From Bacillota bacterium (GTDB taxonomy: Bacteria > Bacillota > Clostridia > Oscillospirales > Acutalibacteraceae): a stretch of DNA of 64,000 nt. Under the pieces are notes generated by a model. The model ran no database searches, was not told the DNA's origin, and saw nothing but the letters and a program-made list of their open reading frames with translations. The position numbers and the translations under genes are program-made. The DNA lies in NCBI GenBank assembly GCA_029008595.1, contig JAQXJH010000106.1, forward strand, positions 8,957-72,956, in the 5' to 3' direction. This document shows, one piece after another, positions 39,073-55,577 of this stretch (position 1 is its first letter; the number at the start of each line of letters is the position of its first letter).

Positions 39073-40527
39073 TTACGGCAGCCGCTCTTTTGCGGCGAGG
39101 GAGCGATAGCGTTCCGATTTTTTGCGGTAAAAGCTGCGCATAGCGTTGTCCTGCGCGAGCAGCGGCGTCATTTTTGCCTTGGCGGAACCTGCTTCGGCAT
39201 AAGAGTAAAAAACGCCCGCACCCACTCCGGCGATCATCGCCGCACCGGCGCAGCAGGTTTCCGGCTGCGACATCCGGTACACGGTGCAGCCGGTGATCCA
39301 TTCCACCAGCCTGCTCCAAAGCTCGCTGCGTGCGGCGCCGCCCGTCATGATCAGCCGGTCTGCCGCAAGCCCCTGCCGGCGGAATTCCTCCAGTACAAGA
39401 TCCGCTTCAAACGCGACACCTTCCATCAGCGCCAGCGCAAGATCATAACGGTCATGCGAGAGAGAAAGGCCATAGATCTCCGCGCGCCGGCCCGGCCGGT
39501 TGTGCGGAAATCCCGCTCCGGCAAGATACGGCAGGAAAAACAGATTTTCGGCGGATTTCACCCGTTTTTCCGCTTCCCGGTCGATCGACGCATAGTCGCT
39601 GCCGATCAGATCCCGGTACCACTTCAGCGCCGAACCGGCCGTCACCAGCGACGCCATTGCGCCGAATCCTCCGGCCGGATGAATGCCCGGCGAAAGATGG
39701 GTATCCGAAAACATCAGATGGTCTGCGATCCCGAAAACGACCCATGTGGTTCCGGTGGCCAACAGCAGATCTCCCGGCCGGACTGCTCCGCTGCCCAGCG
39801 ATGCGCAATACTGGTCATGCGCGCCGTTGAATACCGGCGTGCCTTCCGGCAAGCCCAGTTCTTCTGCCGCCTGTGCCGTCAGCCCGCCGACTGCGGCGCC
39901 GGTCGGGCGGATCTCCGGCAGCCGTTCCGTTTGCACACCGACTTCGCGCAGGATATCGCCGTCCCATTCTCCGCGGCCGATATTGAACAGCTGGCGGATC
40001 GCGCCGCAGGTCGGGTCGATCACGCTTTTCCCCGTCAGCCGCCAGTTGATGAATTCCGGCGTGGAAACAAACTGATATGCGCGAGCAAAAAGCTCCGGCT
40101 CCTGTTTTCGCAGCCAGAGCAGCTTTGCCGCATCCAGAGACGGATTGACCGGCCAGCCGCAGGCGCGGTAGATCGTTTCTTCCCCCAGCGCGGCGGCCAG
40201 CTCTTTGGCCTCCTGCTGCGCACGGGTATCCATCCACGTCATCACCGGGCACAGCGGACGGCACTCTTTATCGACCGCCGTCATGCTGGCACCCTGCGCG
40301 GAGATTGAAATTCCCGCAGCCTTCTGCGGATCCAGTCCCTGCATCGCCTCGCGAACGCTCTGCACGACAGCCTGCCACCAGTCCTCCGCCGACTGAGTGA
40401 CCGCGCTGCCGTCGGTCTGCAGCGAATATTCCCGGTAGCCGCTCCCCAATGCCGTTCCGTCCGCGCGAAAAACGACTGTTTTGGTACCGGTCGTTCCGAC
40501 GTCGATCCCGATCAGATACGGATCCAT
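39073..40527 (-). CDS. FGGY-family carbohydrate kinase (xylulokinase-like)
   Basis: YLIGIDVGTTGTKTVVF N-terminal ATPase motif, GGAARS motif, about 484 aa. Start chosen at MDPYL. Confidence 0.85.
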   Translation of the reverse strand: MDPYLIGIDVGTTGTKTVVFRADGTALGSGYREYSLQTDGSAVTQSAEDWWQAVVQSVREAMQGLDPQKAAGISISAQGASMTAVDKECRPLCPVMTWMDTRAQQEAKELAAALGEETIYRACGWPVNPSLDAAKLLWLRKQEPELFARAYQFVSTPEFINWRLTGKSVIDPTCGAIRQLFNIGRGEWDGDILREVGVQTERLPEIRPTGAAVGGLTAQAAEELGLPEGTPVFNGAHDQYCASLGSGAVRPGDLLLATGTTWVVFGIADHLMFSDTHLSPGIHPAGGFGAMASLVTAGSALKWYRDLIGSDYASIDREAEKRVKSAENLFFLPYLAGAGFPHNRPGRRAEIYGLSLSHDRYDLALALMEGVAFEADLVLEEFRRQGLAADRLIMTGGAARSELWSRLVEWITGCTVYRMSQPETCCAGAAMIAGVGAGVFYSYAEAGSAKAKMTPLLAQDNAMRSFYRKKSERYRSLAAKERLP

Positions 40528-40560
40528 TGCCATCCTTCCTTTCGCAGTCTGCACAAGCAG

Positions 40561-41334
40561 CTATACTTCCTGAATCCGGACACAGTAATTCCGCAGCTCT
40601 TCGCGCCGCACCGCCGGCAACCCCGTGTCGGTGATCAGAAGGTCGATTTTCCGGCCGCGCGTATAGCTGACCACTGCGGAATTCTCAAACTTGCTCGCAT
40701 CCGCAAGGATCGTGCCGCAGTCCGTCTGCCCCAGCACCAGTTGATTCAGCCGCGCGGTTGAAAAATCCGTTGCGGTAAAGCCCGTCTGTCCGTTAAAGCC
40801 GTCCGTCCCGAAAAAAGCCTTGGAAAAATGAAGATTCCGGACGGTTTCCTCTGCCAGATAACCGCAAAAATCCCTGCGGTTGGAACGGTATACGCCGCCG
40901 ATCAGATTGACGTCCGTTTCGGCGCAGAGCAGCTCCAGATTGACCATTGAATTGGTAAAAACCGAGAGATTCAGCTTTTCCGCGCGGATCCTTGCCGCCA
41001 GAAGCGCACTCAGCTGCGCGATCGTCGTGCCGGAATCCAGATAAACAACGTCTCCGTCCGCGATCATCTGCACGGCGGCGGCAGCGATCCTTGTTTTTTC
41101 TTCCGAATGGATCCCTTCCAGCTGCTCATAACGGTAATCGGAATTGGCCAGCCCTTCCAGCTGGATGGCGCCGTGTACGCGGACAACGCCGCTTTTTCCT
41201 GCCATGGCGGTAAACAACCGGCGAACGGTCGATTCCGAAACGTCGAGCATCCGCATTGCCTCCGACAAATCGATCCGGCCGGCGATTTTCAGCGCATCCA
41301 GCAGCTTCCGTTCATATGCGTCGCTTTTTTTCAT
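40561..41334 (-). CDS. DeoR/GlpR-family transcriptional repressor
   Basis: N-terminal wHTH (MRMLDVSESTVRRLF) and C-terminal sugar-phosphate-binding DeoR_C domain, 257 aa. Confidence 0.85.
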   Translation of the reverse strand: MKKSDAYERKLLDALKIAGRIDLSEAMRMLDVSESTVRRLFTAMAGKSGVVRVHGAIQLEGLANSDYRYEQLEGIHSEEKTRIAAAAVQMIADGDVVYLDSGTTIAQLSALLAARIRAEKLNLSVFTNSMVNLELLCAETDVNLIGGVYRSNRRDFCGYLAEETVRNLHFSKAFFGTDGFNGQTGFTATDFSTARLNQLVLGQTDCGTILADASKFENSAVVSYTRGRKIDLLITDTGLPAVRREELRNYCVRIQEV

Positions 41335-41379
41335 AACTGACCGATTCCTTTCTGTTTCTGTGCGGGTGCAGGCGCTGCA

Positions 41380-42636
41380 TTACTCCGCTTCCTTGCCCGC
41401 TTCAAACAACGCCCGGCAGCGGGCGTAAACCTCGTCCGGAATCACCGGATCGCCGTCCTTGCAGACCGGCAGCAGCTGATCGCCCGCAATTGCACGGTTT
41501 GTGCAGGCGTGGTCGTTCCGCCATGCGTCGCGTTCCGCCGGATTCCGGAGATCCGGCACGCGCATCGGCCGGTTTCCGTTCAGAATGGAGCGGTAGGCAA
41601 GAATTCCGCAGATCCCCATGTCGACCGCATGGTAAACATCGATCGAATACTGCTCGCCTTCGGGGCTGCCGAGGATTTTTTCAATAAAGAAATGCGTCGG
41701 ATAAAAATCGCTGCCGCCGTGGGAGGCAAATTTTTCGGCCAGAGCCGGCGTGATGAATTTTTCCGGCTTGTAATGCTTCAATTCTCCCTTGCAGAGCTTT
41801 TCGCCCTCGATATAGCAGGAAAGATCGCCGGTATCCCACCGGCCGGATTCCATCATGCCCTTCGTGCCGTACACTTCGAACGTATAGCTGACCGGTTCGC
41901 GCTTCAGGCCGCCGTGAACGCTTTTGCCGATCGCACCGTTGTCAAACGTGATCATTTCAATGGCGCCCGTTCCGCCGTTCAGGCTGCAGGTATCGCCGCG
42001 GGACATATTTTTGTTCGTTTCAAAACCGACCACCTGCACCGGCCGTCTGCCTGTGATCATCATCATCGGGCCGATGCTGTGCGTGCAGTAAAAGGTGGAA
42101 TAGGCACGGTTTCTCCAATGATTTTTATCCCCCTGCGTGATGCGCGGCCAGATGGAAGAACAGTCGTGTACATATTCGCCTTCGGCGTACTGCACCTCGC
42201 CGATATCTCCGTTGGCGTAGCGGCGCCACATTTCAAAGGTGCTGGCCATATAGCAGTAATTTTCGGCGTACGCATAAATCTTGCCGCTCTGCTCCACCGC
42301 TTCGATCAGCTCCACCGCCTGTGCCATGGTTTCGCACGGCAGAACCTCGCTGAGCACATGCCGGCCCGATTTCAGGCAGCGGATCGCATAGGGCGCGTGC
42401 TCGTTGGCATAGTTGGCAAGCACGACGGCGTCCATATCATGGAGGAAGAATTCTTCAAAGTCCGTATACAGAGCAATTTCGGTATGATATTTTTCGGCGA
42501 TCTCCTTTACCGCATCCAACGCCGGAACATAGCGGTCGCACACAGCCACGACTTCCGCATCGGGATGCGACGCCAGCACCTCGATCATCACCTTGCCGCG
42601 CTGAGCGCCGAAAACGCCGACTCTGATCTTTGCCAT
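41380..42636 (-). CDS. Gfo/Idh/MocA-family oxidoreductase
   Basis: N-terminal Rossmann fold (IRVGVFGAQRG), 418 aa. AAAGGAG RBS. Confidence 0.8.
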   Translation of the reverse strand: MAKIRVGVFGAQRGKVMIEVLASHPDAEVVAVCDRYVPALDAVKEIAEKYHTEIALYTDFEEFFLHDMDAVVLANYANEHAPYAIRCLKSGRHVLSEVLPCETMAQAVELIEAVEQSGKIYAYAENYCYMASTFEMWRRYANGDIGEVQYAEGEYVHDCSSIWPRITQGDKNHWRNRAYSTFYCTHSIGPMMMITGRRPVQVVGFETNKNMSRGDTCSLNGGTGAIEMITFDNGAIGKSVHGGLKREPVSYTFEVYGTKGMMESGRWDTGDLSCYIEGEKLCKGELKHYKPEKFITPALAEKFASHGGSDFYPTHFFIEKILGSPEGEQYSIDVYHAVDMGICGILAYRSILNGNRPMRVPDLRNPAERDAWRNDHACTNRAIAGDQLLPVCKDGDPVIPDEVYARCRALFEAGKEAE

Positions 42637-42674
42637 AAAACAAAACTCCTTTCATCCTGGTAGACTGACCCGGT

Positions 42675-44234
42675 TCAAACTTCCTGTTCCAGATGATCCA
42701 GCGCGGCCCGAAGCCGTCCGGCAAGAAAATCCAGCATTTTTTCGGACGCGATCACCGGCGGCTTCAGCAGCACGGCCGGCGGGCAGTTGGCTTTGTACAG
42801 CTGCGCCGAGGTATCGATACATTCTTCATTCACCAGCGAAGCGAAGCGGGCAGCCGTTGCCACGTCATGAAAATGCAGCGCACCCAGCAGCCCCAGACCT
42901 TCCGCACGGCAGACCGTCGCGCTGTAATCGTCCGCGATCTGCTGCAGCGCGTGCTCAAACTGCTCGCCCAGCTTGTGCAGGCGCTCCTGATTGGCCTCTT
43001 CAAACGTCATGGTGATCAGATAAGCCAGCGACGCCAGCTCCTCCTGCCCGTTGGTGACCAGCGCGCCGAACTGGCTGAGGGTATCCATCTCCGCCGTGGT
43101 AATGATCTTGCTGGCGGGGTATTCTCCGCCCGGGAAGCCTTTTCCGACCGTAACAAAATCCGGCTGCAGGCCGTAAAGCTGGAACAGGAACATGCCCGGA
43201 TACCACATTCCGGTCTGAATTTCGTCTACCATGGTGGGGGTATCGGTTTCGCGGCAGAGCGCATGCGCTGCGCGGACATACTCCGGCTCCAACCGCACTC
43301 CGCCGTAATTCATCAGGATCAGCTCATGCAGAAAGCCTGCCGTTTTGAAGTTTCCGCTGTTGTAGCGTTCCATCTTAGCGCGGAAATCTTCCAGATCGTT
43401 GACGGCGACCGGAACCACCTTGTAGATCCCGGCAGCTTCCAGCTTTTCGGCAAGCTCCGGCCACAGCCCGCGGAACGTCTGCGCCGTGATGCAGGTGCCG
43501 TGATAGTTGGCCTCCGGTCCGCCGTTCTGATCCTGCATCACAAAAAACACCGGCGTTTTTCCCGCATATTTCGGTTCGGCCGAGGTCGGCTCCAGACGGT
43601 AAAAGCGCGCCAGCATCATTTTGATCGCCGCTTCGCACGCAAGAGATCCCGTTTCCAGATTGATCACGCGGTTCAGAACATGCGGCTCGGCCGACTGCAG
43701 AACCGTTTCCAGCGCAGCGCCATCTTCGCCGATGATCCCGTTGGCCGCTGCAATGAGCCGCTGCTCCAGCAGGCGGGTGACAAAGCCGCGCGTATTGTTG
43801 TGCGTCGCGTTGAGGATGCCGATTTTTCTCGCATTGTCAATCAGCCGGTAGCCCGGGAAGCGGTGTCCCAGCGAAGCCTGATAATGCTCGCTTTTCCCCA
43901 GCAGGTAAAGCCGGCCGTTTTCCCCCAGACGATAGCCGCAGGCGCCGGTCAGCGGAGCGGCAAAGGAGTGCGCAGCCTTTCGGAATGCATCGGTCGGCGC
44001 GCCCTGATTCTCCTCCCGGAACGGCGGGATCATCTCTTTGCCGACGGAACGCAGCAGCTCATCGTTTTTTTGCTGCATCGCTTCCGGATAAAAATCAACT
44101 TTTTCGTTGGCCGCCGCAAGCGCTTCCTCTTTGCTCAAAAGCCCAAGGGCCGCTCCGGCTTCCGCCACATGTTCCACATACTCTGCGCCAAGCAGATCGG
44201 TCAAGGATAATTTCGGTGAACAGAACATTTTCAT
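42675..44234 (-). CDS. Class-III PLP-dependent aminotransferase with N-terminal extension
   Basis: SLGHRFPG, DEIQTGMWYPG and VTVGKGFPGG (Schiff-base Lys) motifs. About 519 aa, with the start at MKMFCSP. Confidence 0.75.
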   Translation of the reverse strand: MKMFCSPKLSLTDLLGAEYVEHVAEAGAALGLLSKEEALAAANEKVDFYPEAMQQKNDELLRSVGKEMIPPFREENQGAPTDAFRKAAHSFAAPLTGACGYRLGENGRLYLLGKSEHYQASLGHRFPGYRLIDNARKIGILNATHNNTRGFVTRLLEQRLIAAANGIIGEDGAALETVLQSAEPHVLNRVINLETGSLACEAAIKMMLARFYRLEPTSAEPKYAGKTPVFFVMQDQNGGPEANYHGTCITAQTFRGLWPELAEKLEAAGIYKVVPVAVNDLEDFRAKMERYNSGNFKTAGFLHELILMNYGGVRLEPEYVRAAHALCRETDTPTMVDEIQTGMWYPGMFLFQLYGLQPDFVTVGKGFPGGEYPASKIITTAEMDTLSQFGALVTNGQEELASLAYLITMTFEEANQERLHKLGEQFEHALQQIADDYSATVCRAEGLGLLGALHFHDVATAARFASLVNEECIDTSAQLYKANCPPAVLLKPPVIASEKMLDFLAGRLRAALDHLEQEV

Positions 44235-44250
44235 CCGCCTTTCTTCTGTT

Positions 44251-45636
44251 TCAGATCCGTACGGTCTCCATGCCCAGCAGGCGGGCAAAGAATTCCAGCT
44301 GCTCCGGCTCCGCGCCGTAAATCAGAATACTGTGGTGCGTTGCGCCGTTCTGAGAAAGCCGCTCAAGAAAATCCGGCAGTTCAGCCTGCGGGCGCATCCA
44401 GCCGCGCATGGCGGACGGGAAGACCTCCGGCGGGATGTCCAGCATTTCCACCGGGGAGATGACCGCGCGGAAATCCTCGGCGCCGCGGGAAATGTTCAGA
44501 AAAACTGCTTTTCCGCCGCGGAAGCCTGCGTAGCCGACCACCGGCGCCGACGCATCGGTATAATTGAAGGAAGCGCCGCGCAGCTGCGGTTTTCCGTCTG
44601 CGATACGGTAATTGATCTCTCCCATATGGCTCAGGAACAGGTTGCCGTTCTGCCAGTCGGGGCAGAATATCTCGGTGAACGAGCTTTCCGGGAACGCCTG
44701 CAGCAGCGCACCGGTAAAGGCCGCCGTCAGAACGTCGCCTTCTCCGGCGTATCCGACTCCGTTTTCCATTGCACGGCAGGCCTCGGTAAACGGCATGGAA
44801 TCCAACCCAGCCGACGGGCTGACCTTCAGGAAATTGACCGAAAAAGCGCCGAGCTGATGACGTTCCGCCCATTTGCGCACCGTCAGGCAGGCCTTTGTAT
44901 TCAGCCGGAAGCAGGTCTCATCCAGCGGTTCCGGGATCTCGAAGCGTTCCCGCGCACACGCCATCTCCCGTTCAATTTCCTCATTCGTTACGGAATCGCG
45001 GATCCTGCACAATTCGGCCGGGTCAGCCGTCTCCAGCTCCACGCCGAACCGGCTGCGCAGTTCTTCGCCGGACACCAGAAAATCTCCCATACCGGCAAAG
45101 CTGCCGCCGCAGCTGCCGACCCGCATTCCCTTCAGCGCTCCGGCTGCTCTGGCTGCGCGGGCAAAACCTGCAGCGCGGTGGATCACGTCTGAATTCTGCC
45201 AGTGTCCGGCGCAGATTGCATACGGTTTTCCGTTCCGGCGCAGCAGACTGCAAAGATCCATCACGCCGTGGATGCCGTGGTTGTAGTTGATCTCGTCGGG
45301 ATCCTGCTGAAAATCAAAGGTAAAAGTCTCGGTCGTGTCCAGCACGATGACCGGCAGCGGAGTTTCGGTCAGCACCGCCACGGATTCCAGCGACGGCGAA
45401 TACGCCATGTGGAGCGTGATGATGCAGTCGGCACCCTGCTGCTCAAACTGCCGCACCGCCCCGGCAAATTCCGATTCCAGCCGGCAGAATCCGGTGCGCA
45501 GCACCTCAAGGCCCTCCTGCTCCAGCCGGCCGGCAATTTTTTGATAAAACGGCTCCAGCCTGTCGCGCAGGGACGGGATCAGATCGTCATAAAGCTTGAT
45601 GTAAAGGGGCAGAAGCCCCGCCCGGATCTTTTTCAT
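44251..45636 (-). CDS. L-arabinose isomerase (AraA) family sugar isomerase
   Basis: By-eye matches to E. coli AraA motifs: HGIHG...AGHWQN, GYAGEGDVLTAAF, LSHMGE, GATHHSILIYG. Confidence 0.7.
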   Translation of the reverse strand: MKKIRAGLLPLYIKLYDDLIPSLRDRLEPFYQKIAGRLEQEGLEVLRTGFCRLESEFAGAVRQFEQQGADCIITLHMAYSPSLESVAVLTETPLPVIVLDTTETFTFDFQQDPDEINYNHGIHGVMDLCSLLRRNGKPYAICAGHWQNSDVIHRAAGFARAARAAGALKGMRVGSCGGSFAGMGDFLVSGEELRSRFGVELETADPAELCRIRDSVTNEEIEREMACARERFEIPEPLDETCFRLNTKACLTVRKWAERHQLGAFSVNFLKVSPSAGLDSMPFTEACRAMENGVGYAGEGDVLTAAFTGALLQAFPESSFTEIFCPDWQNGNLFLSHMGEINYRIADGKPQLRGASFNYTDASAPVVGYAGFRGGKAVFLNISRGAEDFRAVISPVEMLDIPPEVFPSAMRGWMRPQAELPDFLERLSQNGATHHSILIYGAEPEQLEFFARLLGMETVRI

Positions 45637-45675
45637 ACATCCATTCTTCCTTTCTGCGTTTTTGCATGAGTTCCA

Positions 45676-46698
45676 TCAAAACCGGATGCCAAACAGCTTT
45701 GCCGCATTGCCGCAAAGAATATCGGCGACCTCTTTTTTGTTCAGCGCAAGCTTCTGTGCACAGCGGCGGAAGGCCCGCAGCTCCTCATACAGGAAATTGG
45801 TCAGTCCCGGTTCGTCCGTTTCCCGCATATGCGGATCGGACGATACGTCGCCGTACAGGCCGCGCGGAACCACATTATAATAGATCCCGTTTTCCGTGAT
45901 GCGGTACATCCGCATTTTGGTGATCGGCAGGTCGGAACCGAACATGAGGCGGCCGGTTCCCACCGCTTCAATGCATTGCTCCATCGCAAGATCCAGCGTG
46001 TTGGCGGTAAAATCAAACATCATGTGCTGCGTATGCTTCAGCGTCTGGAACGCATCGCCGAGATCCTCTTTGGAATACGCGCGGCCGACATGCGCAACGA
46101 TCAGCTTCACGTTCGGCCAGCGTTCTTCGATCTGCATCAGCTGGGCAATATTCAGTGGATCGCGCAGACGGCCGGGACGCGAGATGTGCAGCATGACGAT
46201 CCAGCCGTAACGGTTTGCCAGCTCCAGATGCTCCGGCGGCAGAAAGTCAAAGATCCTCACCTCGCTGCCGGGGATATAGGCCGGCGCATTGCTCAGATAA
46301 GGCTTCAGCCCACAGTAGCCGCCTTCCGTAACTGCCCGTTCCACTTCCTCAGCAGACTGTGACGAATGCGTACAGTAGAGCACCGGCAGACTGGCCTTCG
46401 CGGCGCAGGCCTGTGCATAGGCGTTCGTTCCCGCCAGATCGACGACCGGATAGCCCATCAGCACCGGTTTGACGCACTGGTTCGGGAACAGATCGCGGTA
46501 CGTCTGCTGAAGATCCTCCATCGTGCATTCCTCTGCGACCAGCTGCGTCCAGGTCACGCAGCCCTTCGCCTCCTGATGGTGATCATGCTCCTTCTTCCAC
46601 AGATGCGCGTGTACATCGATCATATGTTCCGGCAGAAACGGAGCCAGTTCTTCTTCATAGACCCGCCGGTCGGCCTCGGTCATTTCAAATCCAAACAT
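45676..46698 (-). CDS. Amidohydrolase-2 family metal-dependent hydrolase (lactonase/decarboxylase fold)
   Basis: IDVHAHLW N-terminal metal motif, ...VMLHISRPG..., ...VAHVG..., FGSDLP. GGAGGA RBS. Confidence 0.7.
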   Translation of the reverse strand: MFGFEMTEADRRVYEEELAPFLPEHMIDVHAHLWKKEHDHHQEAKGCVTWTQLVAEECTMEDLQQTYRDLFPNQCVKPVLMGYPVVDLAGTNAYAQACAAKASLPVLYCTHSSQSAEEVERAVTEGGYCGLKPYLSNAPAYIPGSEVRIFDFLPPEHLELANRYGWIVMLHISRPGRLRDPLNIAQLMQIEERWPNVKLIVAHVGRAYSKEDLGDAFQTLKHTQHMMFDFTANTLDLAMEQCIEAVGTGRLMFGSDLPITKMRMYRITENGIYYNVVPRGLYGDVSSDPHMRETDEPGLTNFLYEELRAFRRCAQKLALNKKEVADILCGNAAKLFGIRF

Positions 46699-46701
46699 GT
46701 T

Positions 46702-47835
46702 TCATTCCTCCAGCGAAACGACGCGCCCGGTGCGGAAGGATTCCAGCGCCGCCGTATGCAGTTTATGCGAAAGCGCGGTTTCCTCCGGCGTAAAGCAGCC
46801 GAACCGCGGATCCTGACCGTCCAGCTCTGCCAGAAAGGCAGCCCACATCTGCAGGATCGCGTCGGTAAAGCCGAATTCAAAGATCCCGCCGGTGATGGTT
46901 GCAAACAGCGGCTTGTAGCCGACATTCAGCCGGCACCACGCCTGTTCCTTGTCCCAGCTTTGGGTGTAGCAGAACGCTCCCGGATCGTTTGTGGAAAAAC
47001 GGGCGGAATTCTTCAGCCCGAGCACCTCAAGGCTCCATTCGTTCGTGGAACCGGGCGACATGCGCTTGGTTTCAAAATAAATCGGGAAGGTTCCGTTTTC
47101 ATCTTCCGTGTCGCAGATCATCACAGCGTTGTCCCACGTTCTGCATTCCGCCATACCGCCCTTGCCGTCCGGCCGTTCGGTGATCAGGTTGGAAAGCTTT
47201 GCATAAACGTTTTTCGGCTTCCAGCCCACGCGGAACGGAACGTGCTGCGTATGGATCCCCAGGTCGCCCATACAGCCGTACTCCCCGTTGATCTCGATCA
47301 TCCGCTTCCAGTTGATCGGTTTGTTCGGATCCATATCGCTGCTGTGCTTGAAGCAGGAGCGCACCTCGATAATTTTGCCGAAGCGCCCTTCGCGGATCCA
47401 GCGGATGAGCTGCTGGCAGGCCGGATAATACGGGAACTCGCTTGCGCAGCGCACCAGAACCTCCGGATGCTCCCGGACCGCCTGCATAATCCGGTCGTTG
47501 GCTGCCTTGTCGATTCCGAAGGGCTTTTCCCCCAGAAGGTGCTTGCCGGCACGGATGATATCGCAGTAGACCTGCGCGTGCAGATTATGCGGCAGGGCGC
47601 AGTAAACGGCCTGAACCTGCGGGTCGCGCAGCAGCTCGTGATAATCGTCGGTCACCAGACCGATCGACGGAAAATGATCGGTAAACCACTTGGCAGACGC
47701 CGGATTCTTATCGCACACCGCGACCAGCTCCGGCTGCGGAAGATCCTCCAGCAGATGGCACCATCTGGCCGAAGCGCTCGCAAATTCACGGCCCATCAGA
47801 CCACAGCCGATAATCCCGAATCGAATCTTTTTCAT
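46702..47835 (-). CDS. Gfo/Idh/MocA-family oxidoreductase
   Basis: MKKIRFGIIGCGLMGREF Rossmann N-terminus with AGGGGG RBS. The track start at 47874 was trimmed. Confidence 0.8.
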   Translation of the reverse strand: MKKIRFGIIGCGLMGREFASASARWCHLLEDLPQPELVAVCDKNPASAKWFTDHFPSIGLVTDDYHELLRDPQVQAVYCALPHNLHAQVYCDIIRAGKHLLGEKPFGIDKAANDRIMQAVREHPEVLVRCASEFPYYPACQQLIRWIREGRFGKIIEVRSCFKHSSDMDPNKPINWKRMIEINGEYGCMGDLGIHTQHVPFRVGWKPKNVYAKLSNLITERPDGKGGMAECRTWDNAVMICDTEDENGTFPIYFETKRMSPGSTNEWSLEVLGLKNSARFSTNDPGAFCYTQSWDKEQAWCRLNVGYKPLFATITGGIFEFGFTDAILQMWAAFLAELDGQDPRFGCFTPEETALSHKLHTAALESFRTGRVVSLEE

Positions 47836-47894
47836 AAACAGCCCCCTGACACTTTGCTGAATTTTGCCGGGCAAACGCTTTGCCCGATGAAATC

Positions 47895-47923
47895 ATCATA
47901 TCATTTCCGAACGAATCGGTCAA
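47895..47923 (-). promoter_or_regulatory. Internal sigma-A type promoter of the enzyme sub-operon
   Basis: Minus strand TTGACC (47923-47918), 17-nt spacer, TATGAT (47900-47895). Confidence 0.55.
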
Positions 47924-47962
47924 TAGATTGGGTTAAAATGACCGTTTTATTTGAAATCGGTC

Positions 47963-47998
47963 AAAAAAATCATCCGCGCAGCAAAACGCGGATGATTT
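47963..47998 (-). terminator. Intrinsic terminator after the 2-hydroxyacid dehydrogenase gene
   Basis: Minus strand AAATCATCCGCG...CGCGGATGATTT hairpin followed by TTTTTTT. Confidence 0.75.
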
Positions 47999-48044
47999 CT
48001 GACTGTTTGTTTGAACGAAGACTGCCGCGCTCCGGCAGCCGGCC

Positions 48045-49067
48045 TTACGCTTTTTTGTCTGACGCATGCAGCGCCCCGGGCGAAAGCGTCATATGCCGGG
48101 CGTATTCCAGACTGATCTCATTTTCCAGTTCCGGCTCGCCCGCCAGCCAGCGCTCCAGGTCATGGATCAGCGCCAGCGTTACGTATTCCCGGATATCGAT
48201 AGTCGGGCCTGCGCGGTGCGGGATCAGAATGATATTTTCACACCCGCGCAGCGAAGAATCCATCGGCAGCGGTTCCTTCTCATACACATCCAGAACGGCG
48301 CGGATCTTTCCGGCGCGCGCTGCCTCGGCCAGGTCGTCCTCCACAATGATCGGGCCGCGCGCCGTGTTGACGAACAGGGCGTCCTGCTTCATCATGGAGA
48401 AATAGTGCCGGTCGATCATATGATATGTTTCATCGCGCAGGGATTCGTGCAGCGAAACGATGTCGCAGGTGGAAAACAGCTCATCCATGTCGCACTTCTG
48501 CGCATGGTATTCCGCTTCGTCCTCCGGACGGTAAAAATCCGAACAGATCTTCACCCTGCACTCAAAAGCTTGCAGCATTTTCGCCAGATATTTTACCACC
48601 ATGCCGAATCCGATCAGACCGATGGTCTTGAAGCGGATCCCGTCGGAATAATACATGGGCGCCCAACCGTTGGCAGCCGTTTCGTTCACCAGCTTGACCA
48701 GCCTTCTCTGCGCAAGCAGAATATAGCCGATGGTTCCCTCGGCGACCGAATTGGCAAACAGCTTGTTTCCGCACAGCACCCGCACGCCGCGCTGCACAAG
48801 CGCTTCGGTCATAAAGCCTGCCACGCTGCCGCCGGTGTAACACACCAACTTCAGGCGGTCGGCGTGCTCCAGCATCGCCTCGTCAAGCTTCGGGATCCCC
48901 CATCCGGCAAACAGCACATCGACGCCGCGCAGATTTTCCTTCAGCTCCTGCGGCGAAAAAACGCCGTAGCGAACCGTGCCACAGTTTTCCAGTTCTTCTT
49001 TCACCCGGTCGGTAAAAAAAGTTCGGTTGGTCTCTTCCGAGGCCATACAGCTGACAAGAATGTTCAT
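48045..49067 (-). CDS. D-isomer-specific 2-hydroxyacid dehydrogenase family protein
   Basis: GLIGFGMVVKYLA NAD motif, and NTARGPIIVEDDL...IPHRAG catalytic Arg/Glu/His region. Start at MNILVS. Confidence 0.85.
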   Translation of the reverse strand: MNILVSCMASEETNRTFFTDRVKEELENCGTVRYGVFSPQELKENLRGVDVLFAGWGIPKLDEAMLEHADRLKLVCYTGGSVAGFMTEALVQRGVRVLCGNKLFANSVAEGTIGYILLAQRRLVKLVNETAANGWAPMYYSDGIRFKTIGLIGFGMVVKYLAKMLQAFECRVKICSDFYRPEDEAEYHAQKCDMDELFSTCDIVSLHESLRDETYHMIDRHYFSMMKQDALFVNTARGPIIVEDDLAEAARAGKIRAVLDVYEKEPLPMDSSLRGCENIILIPHRAGPTIDIREYVTLALIHDLERWLAGEPELENEISLEYARHMTLSPGALHASDKKA

Positions 49068-49156
49068 AAACACGCTGTTCCTTTCCGTTTTCCGGCCGTC
49101 GACCGGTTTCATTTTTACTCAACAGAATCATATCAATCCGGCTGCATCATAACAGA

Positions 49157-49190
49157 CGAAAAAGACCCAGCGCAATAACCGGGTCTTTTT
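49157..49190 (-). terminator. Hairpin after the SBP gene (attenuator/terminator)
   Basis: Minus strand AAAGACCC...GGGTCTTT stem followed by a T-run. Confidence 0.65.
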
Positions 49191-49209
49191 CTCCTGATAC
49201 AACCTGAAA

Positions 49210-50841
49210 TCAGGCGTTGTAGCGGTCAAAAGAATCCTGATAGACCTTCAGAACCTGCTCGATGCCCATGTTCTCGATTGCAGCCACATACGCATTCCAG
49301 CTGTCGTCCGTCACACCGTCGGTGATGAAGGTCGCTCTGCTGTCCGCAACATACTTCGAGATATCGGTGTAGCTTTCTGCCAGGACGCTCGATTCGTCAT
49401 CCGTGAAGGCAAGATAGTTCTTCGGGAAGATATCGACCGAATACGGCAGCAGCTTGTCACGGGTACCGTTGCCCTTGCAGAGCAGACCCATGGAGGAAGA
49501 GTTCAGGGACATGAAGATGCAGTTGTTGGCGTTGGAGAAGCCGAACTCCGTCAGGAAGTTGGTCGGTGCGCCGTCGTAATCATCCGGAACCTTGATGGTG
49601 TAGGTTTCTTTGCTGTCATCATCATAGTCCCAGTTTACGCCCTTGACGCCGAGCCACATGGAGATACTGGAAACGCCGGGAGCGATCTCGTTTTCTTCGG
49701 TCGTGTAGAGAGCGTTGACCCATTTCACCAGCGTCTCAATATCAGAGCACTTGGTGGAAATTTCGAACGAACCCATACGGGAAGGATAACTCTTCGGATA
49801 CTTCTGCGTGGAGGTGTATTCCGAGGTCAGCGGAGCGAGCAGATCGACATCGTAGTTGCCGCTCTTGAAGTTATCCAGAGAATAAATCGTGCCGTAGGTC
49901 GTGATCGCAGCGTTGTTCGCCAGCAGAACGGCCTTGGCGTTGGTGCCGTCTTCGGAGAAGATGTTCTTGTCAAAGCCGCCGGAGGTATACAGTTCATGCA
50001 TGTACTCCATCAGACGGCGGTACTGTTCGGAGGTGTAGTTGAAGGTGACCGTTTTGCCGTCGGAGGAACCGAATTCCATATCGACCTCATCGCCGAACGC
50101 CGGGAAGAGGAAATACAGCAGCATAGAAGAGAGATGACCATTGGAATAGGGCTGGAACGCAATGAAATCCTTGTTGTTTGCGCCGTAGTAGCTCTGCAGA
50201 TCCTTAACGGCCTGCAGCAGCTCGTCCGTCGTCTTCGGAACTTCCACAGCGGCTTCCGCGAACATATCGGTACGATAGTAGATCGTTCCGGCGAAAGCGG
50301 TCAGCGTCTGCAGAAATGTCGGCAGCGCATACATGGAGCCGTCTTCGTTTTCAACGGTCTTGTAGGATTCCGGATGGGCATCCATCAGCGCGACCAGGTC
50401 GGGCATATACTTGAGGTAATCCTTGTAGTTGATGAAATACTGCTGCTGACCGTATTTCAGAGCCTGTGCCTTATCCATTCCGGTGTTGTCAAGGTTGAAG
50501 ATCAGATCCGGAACCTCGTTGCCGGAAAGCGCAACGCCGAGCTGTGTCTCCCAGTCGGACCAATACTGCCAGTCGATCGCCACGTTAGTGGCCTCTTCAT
50601 AGGCTTTGTACCACAGGTGCTCGCTCACACCGTCCCTCGGAGCGGCAGCGGTAAAGGTGACCTTTTCCGAAACGATCGGATAGGACGGCGTGTACGTTTC
50701 TTCTTCCTGAGAAGAAGTGGATGTTTCGCTCGCAGCTGAAGACGATGCCGGCGCGGAGGAGGATGCGTTTCCCGAGCAGGCCGTCATCATGCCGATCCCC
50801 AGAAGGACCGACAGGATCAGCGCGAATACTTTCTTGGACAT
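49210..50841 (-). CDS. Extracellular solute-binding lipoprotein, large LplA-like sugar SBP (CUT1)
   Basis: Lipobox MMTACSG and a Ser-rich linker, 543 aa. AAAGGAG RBS. Confidence 0.85.
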   Translation of the reverse strand: MSKKVFALILSVLLGIGMMTACSGNASSSAPASSSAASETSTSSQEEETYTPSYPIVSEKVTFTAAAPRDGVSEHLWYKAYEEATNVAIDWQYWSDWETQLGVALSGNEVPDLIFNLDNTGMDKAQALKYGQQQYFINYKDYLKYMPDLVALMDAHPESYKTVENEDGSMYALPTFLQTLTAFAGTIYYRTDMFAEAAVEVPKTTDELLQAVKDLQSYYGANNKDFIAFQPYSNGHLSSMLLYFLFPAFGDEVDMEFGSSDGKTVTFNYTSEQYRRLMEYMHELYTSGGFDKNIFSEDGTNAKAVLLANNAAITTYGTIYSLDNFKSGNYDVDLLAPLTSEYTSTQKYPKSYPSRMGSFEISTKCSDIETLVKWVNALYTTEENEIAPGVSSISMWLGVKGVNWDYDDDSKETYTIKVPDDYDGAPTNFLTEFGFSNANNCIFMSLNSSSMGLLCKGNGTRDKLLPYSVDIFPKNYLAFTDDESSVLAESYTDISKYVADSRATFITDGVTDDSWNAYVAAIENMGIEQVLKVYQDSFDRYNA

Positions 50842-50908
50842 GTTGTTTGCTCCTTTCGACTAATCAAATTTTATGATAACAGAGATCCCTCTGTCAACAC
50901 CCGATCAA

Positions 50909-51814
50909 TCATCCCTTGACGGATCCGAGCATAACGCCCTTGTCAAAGTATTTCTGCAGGAATGGATAAACGATCAGCAGCGGGGCCGAGCTGACGATGA
51001 TCAGCGCGTACTTGAGCAGATTGGCCAGGTTTGCATAATACACGGCAAGTTCCTCATCGATCGAAGCGCCGCCGGCGGAGTTCATCGTGTTCAGGATCAG
51101 GATCTCGCGCAGGACGAGCGCCAGCGGGATCTTTTCGCGCGCAGAGGCCAGGTAGATCAATGCGCTGAAGTAGGAGTTCCAGTGCGCCACCGCATAATAC
51201 AGCGTCAGAACACCGAGCAGCGCTTTGGAAAGCGGAAGCACGATTTTGGCAAAGGTCTGGATCGTCGAGCAGCCGTCGATCCTCGCCGCTTCTTCCACCT
51301 CGGCAGGAACACCGTTCTGGAAAAAGGTTCTGGCGATGATCAGATTATAAGTGGAAATACCGGCCGGCAGAATCATTGCCCACCAGGTGTTGAGCAGCCC
51401 GAGATCCCGCACCGTCAGATAAGTCGGAATCATGCCGCCGCTGAAATACATGGTGAACACGATCAGGAACATGATCACGTTGCGCCCCATAAAGTTTTTC
51501 TTGGAAAGCGCATACGCAGCGGTCAGCGTAAAGAACAGGTTGACGATCGTTCCGACAACGGTGTAAAAAATCGTATTGCGGTAGCCCATCAGAATATCGT
51601 CGTTTTTAAAAACGGTTTTATAGGCATCCAGCGTGATCTGCTTCGGCCAGAACCAGACCTCACCTGCCGCGACGGCATTCGGGTTGGAAAAAGAACAGAT
51701 CACCACAAAATACAGCGGATAAAGCACGATCAGAAAAAAGAGGGTGACCACGGTGATATTGATCGCGTTGAAAACTCTGTCGCCTTTGCTTTCTTTGATA
51801 ACGGCCATTTTCAT
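50909..51814 (-). CDS. Carbohydrate ABC transporter permease (LplC type)
   Basis: EAA loop EEAARIDGCSTIQTFAKIVLPL. The start is ATG 51814 or, better spaced from GGGAGGG, ATG 51808. Confidence 0.85.
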   Translation of the reverse strand: MKMAVIKESKGDRVFNAINITVVTLFFLIVLYPLYFVVICSFSNPNAVAAGEVWFWPKQITLDAYKTVFKNDDILMGYRNTIFYTVVGTIVNLFFTLTAAYALSKKNFMGRNVIMFLIVFTMYFSGGMIPTYLTVRDLGLLNTWWAMILPAGISTYNLIIARTFFQNGVPAEVEEAARIDGCSTIQTFAKIVLPLSKALLGVLTLYYAVAHWNSYFSALIYLASAREKIPLALVLREILILNTMNSAGGASIDEELAVYYANLANLLKYALIIVSSAPLLIVYPFLQKYFDKGVMLGSVKG

Positions 51815-51824
51815 TCCCTCCCTT

Positions 51825-52778
51825 TCAGAACAGACTGGTATCCGACATTTTTTTCGAGATCCAGTTGACCAACATGACCAGCCCGAAGTTGATCACGTTG
51901 TTCATCAGGCCGACCGCCGCAGAAAAGCTGAAATCCGTTTTGATCAGGCCGCGGTCGTAAATGTACAGCGCAATGACGTAAGCGTTGTTTGCATTCAGAT
52001 CATTCTTCATCAGATACGTCTTTTCAAAGCCGACACTGAGCAGCGAACCGGCGTTCATAATGAAGAGGATCGTTGCCGTCGGCAGGATCGCAGGCACATT
52101 GATGTGCCAGATGCGCTGCAGGCGCGAGGCACCGTCGATCATGGCAGCCTCGTGCAGACCGGGATCCACACTGGAGAGCGCTGCCAGATAAATGATGCAG
52201 CCCCAGCCTGCTCCCTGCCAGACGCCGGACCAGACATAAAGATGACGGAACGCCGTGGAGGAGGTGATGTAGTTGACGGCTTCGTACCCTAAAAGCTCCC
52301 GGAGGTTATTGATCATTCCGTTCGGCCCGAAGAACAGGTTGAGCATACCGACCAGAACGACCACGGAAATAAAATGCGGCGCATAAACCGTAGTCTGTAC
52401 GATCTTCTTGTATCTCTGGCTTTTCAGCTCGTTGAGCATCAGCGACAGAATGATCGGGATCGGGAAGCTGGCCAGCATGGAATACAGCGCAAGAACGACC
52501 GTATTTTTGATAACCGTCCACGCATATGCCGAACGGAAAAAGCTTTGGAAGTGCTTCAGCCCGACCCAGGGGCTGGCCTGAATCCCCAGCGCTCCGCTGT
52601 AATCCTTGAAGGCGATCTGCAGACCGTACATCGGTACATAGCAGAAAATGATGTACCAGATCACCGCCGGCAGAACCAGAAGGTATAATTGATAGTCCTG
52701 AATCAGACGCTTCCAGACGCTTTTTTTACGCGGAACGGAAAGCGGCTTTTTTTTCTTTGCAACGGCTGTTTTTCCCAA
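51825..52778 (-). CDS. Carbohydrate ABC transporter permease (LplB type)
   Basis: EAA loop HEAAMIDGASRLQRIWHINVP and a basic N-terminus, 317 aa. Confidence 0.85.
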   Translation of the reverse strand: MGKTAVAKKKKPLSVPRKKSVWKRLIQDYQLYLLVLPAVIWYIIFCYVPMYGLQIAFKDYSGALGIQASPWVGLKHFQSFFRSAYAWTVIKNTVVLALYSMLASFPIPIILSLMLNELKSQRYKKIVQTTVYAPHFISVVVLVGMLNLFFGPNGMINNLRELLGYEAVNYITSSTAFRHLYVWSGVWQGAGWGCIIYLAALSSVDPGLHEAAMIDGASRLQRIWHINVPAILPTATILFIMNAGSLLSVGFEKTYLMKNDLNANNAYVIALYIYDRGLIKTDFSFSAAVGLMNNVINFGLVMLVNWISKKMSDTSLF

Positions 52779-52988
52779 AATTCCTGACCTCGATTCTGTT
52801 TGTTGATTTTTTGTACAAAAATATTTTAACGTCCTTGTTTTGAAATGTGTAGTATGATTTTTTTGCAGAGACCCGCAAAATTTGCAGTTTGTTCATAATT
52901 TCAATTTTTCACACGAAAATCCGATTTTTTTGCAAAAAAACAATGGTTCTGCAAAAATCAAACAGAAGCATTTCCCCGGCAAATATGC

Positions 52989-52994
52989 TATAAT
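52989..52994 (+). promoter_or_regulatory. Extended -10 element (TGcTATAAT) upstream of the second AraC-type regulator gene
   Basis: TG at 52986-52987 and TATAAT at 52989-52994. The -35 is weak. Confidence 0.45.
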
Positions 52995-53102
52995 GACTGA
53001 TAGACCGCTGCCTGCAGCGCTGTTTTCTGGATTTGTTGCAAAAAACATGCACGGTCTGCAAAAAAACAATACTGTGAAAGGTTCTGAAATTTACCGGAAA
53101 GG

Positions 53103-55295: not shown

Positions 55296-55356
55296 TCGCT
55301 CCGCGCGGAAATTTTTACCCTTTCCCCGCTCCGGAAAGATCTCTGCCATAGGGGGA

Positions 55357-55385
55357 TTGACAATCCCCCGGCAATCTGTTATAGT
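55357..55385 (+). promoter_or_regulatory. Sigma-A type promoter of the pfl leader
   Basis: TTGACA (55357-55362), 17-nt spacer, TATAGT (55380-55385). Confidence 0.65.
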
Positions 55386-55387
55386 GG

Positions 55388-55490
55388 AACCACGGTCCGC
55401 AACTGGCGTAACGCAGAATACTGCGGGGGAGCGGAACCGGAACTTTCGCCGCACGCCTGGGCATGATTTTTGATCATGCCCGGTTTTTTT
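55388..55490 (+). promoter_or_regulatory. ZTP riboswitch (pfl motif) with intrinsic terminator
   Basis: Conserved ACTGGCG in the 5' subdomain and CCGCACGCCTGGGCA in the 3' subdomain. Terminator GGGCATGAT/ATCATGCCC (55459-55481) plus a T-run overlaps the pseudoknot strand. Confidence 0.8.
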
Positions 55491-55577
55491 GTGCCTTTTT
55501 CGGCTGCCGCGGCATGAATATGCTGCGCGCACAGGCTCCGAACGGCCCTGTGCAGAAGAGAAAGGAACGATTGATTG

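Follow-up and report, generated by a model that had tools for sequence, protein, structure and literature searches.

A two-unit chromosomal locus in an Acutalibacteraceae bacterium and a possible catabolic route for amino- or N-acyl-substituted sugars

The stretch of DNA analysed here, hereafter designated as the window, comprises 64,000 nucleotides of contig JAQXJH010000106.1 (assembly GCA_029008595.1) from a Bacillota bacterium assigned to the Acutalibacteraceae. Between positions 39073 and 52778 of this window lies a locus of eleven minus-strand genes encoding importer proteins, several enzymes and a repressor, with a further regulator encoded divergently on the plus strand. A sequence-only reading had listed these genes with their order and families, and described them as tightly packed; the list of open reading frames (ORFs), together with Pfam and NCBIfam scans, confirmed every gene family at its place as well as the order, and the gaps within the enzyme unit are only 3-45 nt. 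By its architecture, the locus looks like an ordinary sugar-catabolic operon, but its combination of enzymes is uncharacterised, as are three or more of its protein subfamilies. We propose, with moderate confidence, that the locus is a two-unit chromosomal catabolic system whose modular pathway would convert an amino- or N-acyl-substituted sugar glycoside into a phosphorylated ketose; the catalytic roles, the sequence of reactions and the class of substrate are those that we infer from folds, conserved residues and gene linkage.

The importer is encoded first. Two CUT1-type ATP-binding cassette (ABC) permeases (51825-52778 and 50909-51814, minus strand; PF00528 BPD_transp_1, E 1.6e-11 and 1.1e-9, respectively), with 87% and 91% identity in the related locus L001, precede a lipoprotein of 543 aa (49210-50841, minus strand), the N-terminus of which carries a signal peptide with a Cys (..GMMTAC). 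This lipoprotein has no Pfam or NCBIfam match, and its best PDB matches, FusA (5g5y, E 1e-22) and AlgQ1/AlgQ2, mark it as a solute-binding protein (SBP) of the large, oligosaccharide-binding type; it is also similar to family-1 SBPs. Two BPD_transp_1 permeases together with an extracellular solute-binding lipoprotein are the components of a CUT1 ABC importer. Of the ABC uptake system announced by the sequence-only reading, the permeases and the SBP were thus confirmed, while no ABC ATPase gene is encoded in the locus; CUT1 systems of Firmicutes may use a shared ATPase encoded elsewhere, as is assumed for this importer. The fourth gene (48045-49112, minus strand) encodes a D-isomer-specific 2-hydroxyacid dehydrogenase resembling glyoxylate/hydroxypyruvate reductases (PF02826, E 7.7e-46), for which the best NCBIfam models reach about 130 bits vs cut-offs above 450.

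The seven remaining genes, also on the minus strand, form the enzyme and regulator part of the locus. A dehydrogenase of the Gfo/Idh/MocA family, recognised by Pfam and by its motifs and hereafter called Gfo1 (ORF 46702-47874), is followed by an Amidohydro_2 enzyme that represents a small distinct subfamily (AMH2, 45676-46698; PF04909, E 3e-20) and by an aldose-ketose isomerase of the L-arabinose-isomerase family with the N-terminal, central and C-terminal AraA domains of Pfam (44251-45636). Next come a pyridoxal phosphate (PLP) enzyme of class-III fold (AT3, ORF 42675-44288; PF00202, E 6e-23), an NAD-binding protein resembling glycoside hydrolase family GH109 (Gfo2, 41380-42636), identified by a weak Glyco_hydro_109_C match and by PDB entry 2ixa, a DeoR-family repressor (40561-41334; PF00455, E 2.9e-38, and PF08220) and an XylB-like FGGY sugar kinase with FGGY_N and FGGY_C domains (ORF 39073-40554). 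A Shine-Dalgarno-like sequence stands before each of these genes. Comparison with relatives and the position of ribosome-binding sites suggest that three of the ORFs are longer than their genes: the real start of AT3 is most likely the ATG at 44228 (517 aa), Gfo1 likely starts at the ATG at 47835 (377 aa), and for the kinase the ATG at 40527 (484 aa) is the more likely start.

The locus is read as two transcription units, the first combining the importer and the hydroxyacid dehydrogenase and the second the seven enzyme and regulator genes, because a predicted terminator and a predicted promoter lie between the hydroxyacid dehydrogenase and Gfo1 genes. This gap of 209 nt holds a stem-loop with a T-run and then a promoter-like site, both of which had been proposed earlier and were recovered by sequence reading and a promoter scan. 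The intrinsic terminator of the transporter unit (~47998-47960, minus strand) has the structure AAATCATCCGCG-TTTTGC-TGCGCGGATGATTT followed by TTTTTT, with a G+C-rich stem of 11-12 bp, and the predicted sigma-70-type internal promoter of the enzyme unit (47923-47895, minus strand) reads TTGACC-17-TATGAT, with 10/12 matches and a TG extension. A second intrinsic terminator (39022-38987, minus strand; a 16-bp stem, then a T-run) closes the enzyme unit after the kinase gene. The terminator scan and sequence reading also recovered the hairpin that had been noticed directly 3' of the SBP gene (49191-49158, minus strand; 14 bp), a candidate partial terminator or mRNA-stabilising element.

Two regulators probably act on these units. 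The divergent gene (53103-55295, plus strand) encodes an AraC-family protein of 730 aa, 75% identical in L001, in which two hydrophobic segments (residues 23-53 and 311-338) enclose, according to hydropathy, a putative extracytoplasmic domain of some 260 residues, and the helix-turn-helix (HTH) domain recognised by Pfam is C-terminal (HTH_18 and HTH_AraC, residues 650-727). Because of the two predicted membrane segments and the C-terminal AraC HTH, it is regarded as a membrane-anchored AraC-type sensor, as had been supposed from the sequence, and it probably activates the importer unit. The control region between this gene and the permease operon (52779-53102) contains a promoter-like site (52851-52823) and, as revealed by k-mer analysis, five or more TTTTTTTGCA(G/A)A-type repeats, with both orientations represented, which are possible AraC operator sites. 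The enzyme unit is probably repressed by DeoR. A direct repeat, TTGACCGATT, occurs in two copies 41 bp apart within 47914-47964, one overlapping the -35 box of the internal promoter and the other located at 47955-47964, and these copies may represent a DeoR operator. Short inverted repeats of the type GACCG..CGGTC are also found near them.

The sequence-only reading had described the locus as an orphan catabolic island, and neither word can be retained. A mobile or horizontally acquired island was rejected: the G+C content of the locus (0.52-0.58) is like that of the remainder of the window, its flanks are the housekeeping genes prfB, pheA and pyruvate formate-lyase, and a metagenome-assembled genome labelled Acutalibacteraceae, with 90% protein identity, carries all twelve genes in identical order at the same position beside prfB. 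The locus is thus chromosomal, and its source an uncultured gut bacterium of Oscillospirales type. In a plasmid collection, AT3 matched only a Subdoligranulum replicon and AMH2 had no match. As for its being an orphan, the core of the locus is widespread: a pattern scan with one genome per species detected isomerase relatives in at least 542 species-level genomes, nearly all of these genomes belonging to uncultured gut Clostridia. A parallel scan of metagenome contigs for AT3 relatives retrieved at least 442 contigs, which originate from the guts of humans, ruminants and termites, from digesters and from sediments. To none of these proteins has a function been assigned.

Gene neighbourhoods were surveyed by searching the window proteins against the best 80 loci of each scan and by clustering crude ORF calls, disregarding the antisense artefacts (clusters c18 and c25) that such calling produces in G+C-rich loci; co-conservation was counted in loci flanked by 6 kb or more on each side. 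In 33 of the 34 isomerase-anchored loci, AMH2 was present, directly side by side with the isomerase. An FGGY kinase was found in 26/34 (17 of the window's clade and nine of a distant clade), AT3 in 16/34, Gfo1 in 13/34 and Gfo2 in 8/34, so that the kinase, AT3 and Gfo1 accompany the AMH2-isomerase pair in about 40-75% of these loci. The hydroxyacid dehydrogenase was present in 2/34, and the SBP and permeases in 1/34. Around AT3 (n=21), AMH2 occurred in 14 loci, the isomerase and Gfo1 in 13 each and an FGGY kinase in 16. The co-conserved set therefore consists of the universal AMH2 and isomerase, then the kinase, AT3 with Gfo1, Gfo2 and DeoR, and it coincides with the enzyme unit, which is conserved as a block in L008, L012, L018, L022, L089, L113-L125 and the Paenibacillus locus L088. 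The importer, AraC sensor and hydroxyacid dehydrogenase represent additions specific to the lineage and are limited to near-identical relatives, except for a divergent paralogue of the dehydrogenase beside the Subdoligranulum cluster. The eight enzymes, whose co-occurrence was one of the checks suggested by the sequence-only reading, thus do not form a set that is conserved in its entirety.

Based on their gene content, the loci built on the AMH2-isomerase pair can be divided into two types. The first type, to which the window locus belongs, comprises AT3, usually Gfo1 and often a class-II ketose-bisphosphate aldolase. The core also recurs in distant hosts, in varying gene order: Paenibacillus sp. 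J5C2022 has AT3-DeoR-FGGY-AMH2-isomerase-Gfo, human-gut contigs (L113-L125) have SBP-Gfo2-Gfo1-AT3-FGGY-AMH2-isomerase-aldolase, and the cultured Subdoligranulum variabile has a modified form, Gfo-aldolase-FGGY-AraA'-AT3-Gfo1, with a hydroxyacid dehydrogenase nearby and without AMH2. The class-II aldolase occurred in 17 loci with AT3 and in none without it; the earlier remark that no aldolase is present thus holds for the window, where no aldolase gene is encoded, and not for these relatives. The second type, found in 28 loci (L006, L010, L016, L023, L025, L035 and L036 among them; e.g. L036:1-3040), carries YjbQ(UPF0047)-TIM(archaeal type)-YjbQ and a KpsF-like single-SIS isomerase before the AMH2, isomerase and kinase genes, with the GH109-like Gfo2, an FSA/transaldolase or a GDSL esterase as occasional extras. 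The FSA/transaldolase was seen in seven loci without AT3 and in none with it. The two types are mutually exclusive: AT3 was present in 105 loci and TIM/YjbQ/SIS in 28, and no locus had both.

The amidohydrolase at the centre of both types belongs to Amidohydro_2 (PF04909, 73.6 bits vs a gathering score of 26.4), and its subfamily is small, with 93 clusters at 50% identity (E<=1e-30) among 1.84 billion representatives. Seven residues are invariant (D28, H30, H32, K132, H171, H203 and D256); H30, H32, H171, H203 and D256 are found at predicted strand ends in the pattern of a (beta/alpha)8 metal site, and K132, which may be a carboxylated, metal-bridging lysine, is located in strand 4. No match to the PDB was obtained by phmmer, and the best profile hit had an E of 1.6e-4 over about 70 residues. 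For AMH2 and AT3, AlphaFold2 (AF2) models were built from the sequences of homologues; that of AMH2 had a predicted local distance difference test (pLDDT) score of 93, and its best Foldseek TM-score was 0.5-0.57. The lactonase/decarboxylase assignment of the sequence-only reading did not survive profile searches and Foldseek, since AMH2 is close to neither. Candidate subfamilies tried were sugar lactonases, LigI, ACMSD-type decarboxylases and the LigJ hydratase, and none was a close match in sequence or structure. Two kinds of gene fusion were found, both of them repeatedly and on independent contigs. An FGGY::AMH2 fusion of 778 aa is found on three contigs in all, including L175:4220-6556 and L176:822-3158, in an AT3-isomerase cluster, and a fusion of AMH2 with a GNAT acetyltransferase (529 aa; L173:2196-3785 and L174:1445-3034) lies beside a GH109-type Gfo gene; GNAT domains also occur on two remoter amidohydrolase families (P0454 and P0446). 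The fusions connect AMH2 with phosphorylation by the kinase and with N-acetyl or amine chemistry.

The loci of the second type underlie the main rival explanation, in which the core would process a neutral sugar or lactone: AMH2 would hydrolyse a lactone or ester, the isomerase and kinase would follow, and the AT3-Gfo1 pair would be accessory or serve another purpose. The 28 loci that pair AMH2 and the isomerase with YjbQ, TIM and SIS in place of AT3 fit this explanation, as do the Gfo1-AT3 pairs standing alone amid housekeeping genes (L093-L098 and L110); characterised Amidohydro_2 enzymes include sugar lactonases, and AMH2 has a weak match to the NCBIfam model of L-fucono-1,5-lactonase (E 9e-4; 18.8 vs 400 bits). 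However, AT3 is part of the operon in the window and in many relatives and lies between its isomerase and kinase genes, the AMH2::GNAT fusions and the linkage to alanine or glutamate dehydrogenase described below indicate amine chemistry, and the form labelled 'architecture A' has no dehydrogenase able to form a lactone. On balance, a neutral core appears doubtful.

With 81.5 bits for PF00202 vs a gathering score of 30.5, AT3 is a member of the class-III fold, which Foldseek confirmed for its AF2 model (pLDDT 87). Its best structural matches are YgjG (putrescine), AcOAT, SapH and OAT, all at about 20% identity, and both the motif DEIQ (335-338) and the PLP lysine K363 are invariant across 29 homologues. 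None of the named class-III equivalogs of NCBIfam that were tried (putrescine, ornithine, acetylornithine, 4-aminobutyrate, 7,8-diaminopelargonate and others) was acceptable as a name for it, the best being putrescine aminotransferase with 75.6 vs 612 bits over the C-terminal half only. AT3 is most likely an omega-amine:2-oxoacid aminotransferase. An alanine dehydrogenase gene lies inside the cluster in six loci (L101, L123, L130, L131, L132 and L159), and a glutamate dehydrogenase gene adjoins the AT3 gene or the cluster in three others (L091, L169 and L170). This linkage argues for the classical layout of acceptor recycling and ammonium release, and a true catabolic transaminase is therefore favoured over a lyase or an enzyme of biosynthesis. 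Deamination by the transaminase, suggested by the sequence-only reading, is thus supported by the conserved PLP lysine, by these nine loci and by the position of AT3, which directly adjoins Gfo1 in 45 of 105 homologous loci. A comparable arrangement is known from the taurine:pyruvate aminotransferase (Tpa) modules, in which a class-III aminotransferase is likewise linked to alanine dehydrogenase (Ald); in contrast to these, the window contains neither Ald nor glutamate dehydrogenase (Gdh), and the amine is evidently sugar-like rather than a sulfonate or a simple amine.

Two other roles for AT3 were weighed. As a phospho-lyase, comparable to ethanolamine-phosphate phospho-lyase, it would strip phosphate and ammonia from an amino-alcohol phosphate made by the FGGY kinase. 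Such a route is improbable, even though an FGGY gene lies directly downstream of AT3 in 46/105 loci and AT3 matches, among others, the bacterial class-III phospho-lyase 5g4i in both sequence and fold: the Ald or Gdh genes embedded in nine clusters are sensible only for a transaminase with acceptor recycling, the best structural matches are true aminotransferases, and two genes separate AT3 from the kinase in the window. The cluster might otherwise be biosynthetic and add an amino group to a sugar destined for a surface glycan or a secondary metabolite, and pairs of oxidoreductase and aminotransferase are typical of amino-sugar biosynthesis. However, the sugar aminotransferases of such pathways are usually of DegT type and not class III, nucleotidyltransferase, glycosyltransferase and exporter genes are missing from the locus, and an ABC uptake system, DeoR and an FGGY kinase are present, to which relatives add an aldolase and amino-acid dehydrogenases; a biosynthetic cluster is hardly credible.

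The partner of AT3, Gfo1, has the canonical GxGxxG, EKP and D..H motifs and shares 60-77% identity with its relatives. Its best PDB matches are levoglucosan dehydrogenase (6a3f) and scyllo-inositol/L-glucose dehydrogenase (5ya8), with E ~1e-22, and levoglucosan, scyllo-inositol/L-glucose and sugar 3-keto reductases/dehydrogenases are its remote relatives. Scores of 94.4 vs 650 bits for levoglucosan dehydrogenase (NF052479) and of 70 vs 355 bits for inositol 2-dehydrogenase IolG (TIGR04380) led to the rejection of both names.

The isomerase and the kinase point to a familiar end of the pathway. With 52-60% identity to uncharacterised Clostridia proteins only, and none found by exact-match look-up, the isomerase scores 101.7 bits with the AraA model NF002795, far under the cut-off of 622, and was rejected as an AraA orthologue; the sulfoquinovose isomerase SftI (NF048012) was rejected likewise (23.8 vs 700 bits). 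Profile alignment with 4r1o and 7cx7 nevertheless placed the Glu/Glu/His/His set of AraA, which we take to be E306, E331, H348 and H447 in the Geobacillus numbering, on the invariant residues E299, E322, H337 and H434/H435. As the catalytic residues are kept, metal-dependent aldose-ketose isomerisation is a sound inference. The kinase reached 301.6 bits with xylulokinase XylB (TIGR01312; cut-off 380.25), the best of twelve FGGY models that all remained under their cut-offs, and was rejected as an XylB orthologue. An aldose-to-ketose-phosphate endgame, as first read from the sequence, is therefore reasonable.

The second Gfo/Idh/MocA protein had been taken for an oxidoreductase, and its motifs are of GH109 type: the best PDB match is the GH109 alpha-N-acetylgalactosaminidase 2ixa (full length, E 2.5e-14), and in the alignment to this structure SEVLP (EV) replaces the dehydrogenase EKP lysine, an ENxCY motif is present, and Y155 (GEYVHD), H186 (YCTHSIGP) and the His of an SHGG loop are all in place. 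The catalytic residues of GH109 were thus recovered in Gfo2. The roles of this Tyr and the two His, including that of the GGHGG loop, are described in PMC10755693, citing Teze et al. 2020; our mapping onto the Akkermansia numbering would follow from the alignment. As Gfo2 has no signal peptide, it is regarded as cytoplasmic. The locus imports a glycoside-sized ligand yet contains no classical glycosidase gene, and for this reason Gfo2 is a plausible cytoplasmic NAD+-dependent glycosidase, perhaps the missing glycosidase of the locus. GH109 and GH188 enzymes are NAD+-dependent glycosidases that serve as gateway enzymes of catabolic clusters (PMC10755693). Like them, Gfo2 has the Gfo/Idh/MocA fold, is devoid of the EKP lysine, retains the Tyr, the His and the (G/S)HGG His of GH109, and belongs to a cluster with an importer and without a classical glycosidase; it differs in its low identity to GH109, its sub-cut-off score and its cytoplasmic location. 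As dehydrogenases, both levoglucosan dehydrogenase (33 vs 650 bits) and inositol 2-dehydrogenase (42 vs 355 bits) were rejected for it.

These results also bear on the aminocyclitol or rhizopine idea of the sequence-only reading, which found no specific support. In such a catabolism, oxidation of a cyclitol would fall to the Gfo proteins, conversion of an inosamine to an inosose to AT3 and ring opening to AMH2, with the isomerase, kinase and aldolase in place of IolB, IolC and IolJ. Both Gfo proteins match inositol dehydrogenase weakly, a scyllo-inositol dehydrogenase is among the best PDB relatives of Gfo1, IolJ is of the same aldolase family as the aldolase of the relatives, and, as in the moc and iol systems, Gfo/Idh/MocA enzymes stand beside nitrogen-removing chemistry. 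However, scores of 42-70 bits are far from the IolG cut-off of 355, homologues of IolE, IolD, IolB, IolC and MocC/D/E are missing, and the motifs of Gfo2 are those of GH109 and not of a dehydrogenase; the oligosaccharide-type SBP and the GH29, GH38 and rhamnosidase-like neighbours seen in relatives indicate glycans. Aminocyclitol or inositol catabolism is accordingly very improbable.

The absence of a characterised pathway with this set of enzymes, asserted in the sequence-only reading, is supported by three lines of evidence. In NCBIfam release 20, no equivalog cut-off was reached by any enzyme of the locus; solved structures are remote relatives only; and a full-text literature search for the pathway and its component families returned no described counterpart, which is weak evidence, most subscription journals being outside its coverage. 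The source annotations are equally generic ('L-arabinose isomerase family protein', 'amidohydrolase family protein', 'aminotransferase class III-fold...'). The module is abundant in gut Oscillospirales and its chemistry is probably new; every part of it comes from a familiar superfamily, and several known systems resemble parts of it. As in the L-arabinose (AraA/AraB), L-fucose (FucI/FucK/FucA) and L-rhamnose (RhaA/RhaB/RhaD) routes, an AraA-family metal isomerase is followed by an FGGY kinase under a sugar-responsive repressor, and the aldolase of the relatives would release dihydroxyacetone phosphate. In contrast to these routes, that aldolase is of class-II FBA/GatY type and not of FucA/RhaD type, the isomerase is invariably paired with the novel AMH2, and the set is extended by a transaminase and by NAD enzymes. 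N-acetylglucosamine and N-acetylgalactosamine catabolism (NagK/NagA/NagB, and AgaK/AgaA/AgaS with KbaY) offers another possible likeness, with a kinase, a deacylase of the amidohydrolase superfamily, an aldose-to-ketose step with loss of nitrogen and a class-II tagatose/fructose-bisphosphate-type aldolase, and the kinase::AMH2 fusion fits consecutive steps. However, the proteins of the locus are not Nag or Aga homologues at the family level, a class-III transaminase and a ketoreductase apparently remove the nitrogen here, and a deacylase role of AMH2 would be deduced from context. Sulfoquinovose degradation by the sulfo-EMP and sulfofructose-transaldolase pathways shares the design of a gateway glycosidase, isomerase, kinase and aldolase/transaldolase with a dehydrogenase for the C3 fragment, and the TAL/FSA-type enzyme of AT3-free relatives recalls the SftI route; this is an analogy of design only, and membership was rejected, as the SftI score is negligible and sulfonate-specific genes are missing.

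Taken together, the preferred reading, in which an amino- or N-acyl-substituted sugar is degraded, would proceed as follows. The AraC-type membrane protein would sense an extracellular signal, and the importer would take up a glycoside or oligosaccharide, from which the GH109-like NAD+ enzyme would free the modified sugar. AMH2, with a mono- or binuclear metal site, would remove the N-acyl substituent or else hydrolyse a different amide or ester linkage, AT3 would hand the amino group to pyruvate or 2-oxoglutarate, and Gfo1 would reduce the resulting carbonyl of the keto sugar. The AraA-like enzyme would then turn the aldose into a ketose, and the kinase would phosphorylate it, the sugar phosphate presumably relieving repression by DeoR. 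In relatives, a class-II aldolase would cleave the ketose phosphate; in this organism, a housekeeping enzyme presumably does so, or the product itself belongs to central metabolism. The hydroxyacid dehydrogenase may handle a C2/C3 acid or aldehyde fragment. An order resembling that of NagK/NagA/NagB (kinase, deacylase, deaminating isomerase) is equally possible, as it fits both the kinase::AMH2 fusion and the universal AMH2-isomerase pairing. Glycosidase genes neighbouring the relatives are of GH29, GH38, GH106 and rhamnosidase-like types. Since GH29, GH106 and rhamnosidase-like neighbours are found in L089, L091 and L101, and the endgame resembles that of fucose and rhamnose, N-acetylated amino-6-deoxyhexoses of bacterial surface glycans are a speculative substrate candidate.

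Several observations weigh against this reading. None of the enzymes of the locus is close to a characterised one. About one third of the AMH2-isomerase loci have no AT3 and bear YjbQ-TIM-YjbQ and SIS instead, so that an amine is not a necessary substrate of the universal core; the linkage to alanine or glutamate dehydrogenase is limited to the nine loci. The fold of AMH2 does not discriminate between functions, its Foldseek matches to decarboxylases, hydratases, lactonases and dihydroorotase being equally weak, and the Amidohydro_2 family comprises lactonases, decarboxylases and hydratases and, to our knowledge, no deacylases. We also know of no AraA-family enzymes or FGGY kinases that act on amino sugars. 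Finally, the similarity of Gfo2 to GH109 is weak, with about 25% identity and 21.9 bits for Glyco_hydro_109_C vs a cut-off of 27.

A more specific and more tentative form of the amino-sugar reading can be put forward, in which the locus represents a widespread and previously undescribed route of gut Oscillospirales and some soil Bacillota, opened by the cytoplasmic GH109-like enzyme, with AMH2 as deacylase, nitrogen removal by the transaminase and the ketoreductase, and a fucose-like endgame formed by the AraA-like isomerase, the FGGY kinase and a class-II aldolase. Its amino- or N-acyl-deoxy sugars would come from host, dietary or bacterial surface glycans, and the transaminase would replace the NagB/AgaS deaminases. 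If this were true, the YjbQ-TIM-YjbQ/SIS/transaldolase architecture would constitute a second pathway on the same AMH2-isomerase pair, which is what it looks like, and a rare genomic clue to the function of YjbQ. Identification of the substrate would give functions to several abundant protein families together, might establish a transaminase-based removal of nitrogen from sugars, would provide a cytoplasmic member for the small group of NAD+-dependent glycosidases, and would explain how abundant butyrate-producing Oscillospirales feed on a glycan component missing from current pathway maps. The question is accessible to experiment, as two carriers, Subdoligranulum variabile and Paenibacillus sp. 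J5C2022, are in culture.

Additional genes were noticed in the relatives. A gene for an Eis-like GNAT acetyltransferase (Acetyltransf_9/17 and SCP2_2), located at L125:3568-4794 and also present in three sister loci, immediately precedes the DeoR gene of these homologous clusters from the human gut. A lipoprotein of about 670 aa with Cys-rich repeats, for which Pfam and NCBIfam gave no match, is found between the kinase and AMH2 in ten loci (L034, L040, L046, L055, L059-L061, L065, L066 and L082; e.g. L034:6352-8334). An orphan solute-binding lipoprotein of 500 aa, with weak SBP_bac_1/SBP_bac_8 matches, occurs in one to three tandem copies after the AMH2-isomerase pair (L026, L033, L037, L042, L063, L085 and L087; e.g. 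L087:2383-7532), and some of these loci also carry a gene for a DHDPS/NanA-family aldolase.

In the window itself, an ORF of 841 aa (55269-57794, minus strand), antisense to the pyruvate formate-lyase gene (55575-57806, plus strand), has no family match and is almost certainly a spurious product of G+C-rich DNA; similar shadow ORFs overlap the cluster, e.g. at 46366-48405 on the plus strand. Two further lipoprotein genes on the minus strand (12349-13878, 509 aa, and 21758-22906, 382 aa), the N-termini of which combine a signal peptide with a Cys, suggest that other ABC uptake loci are present in the window.

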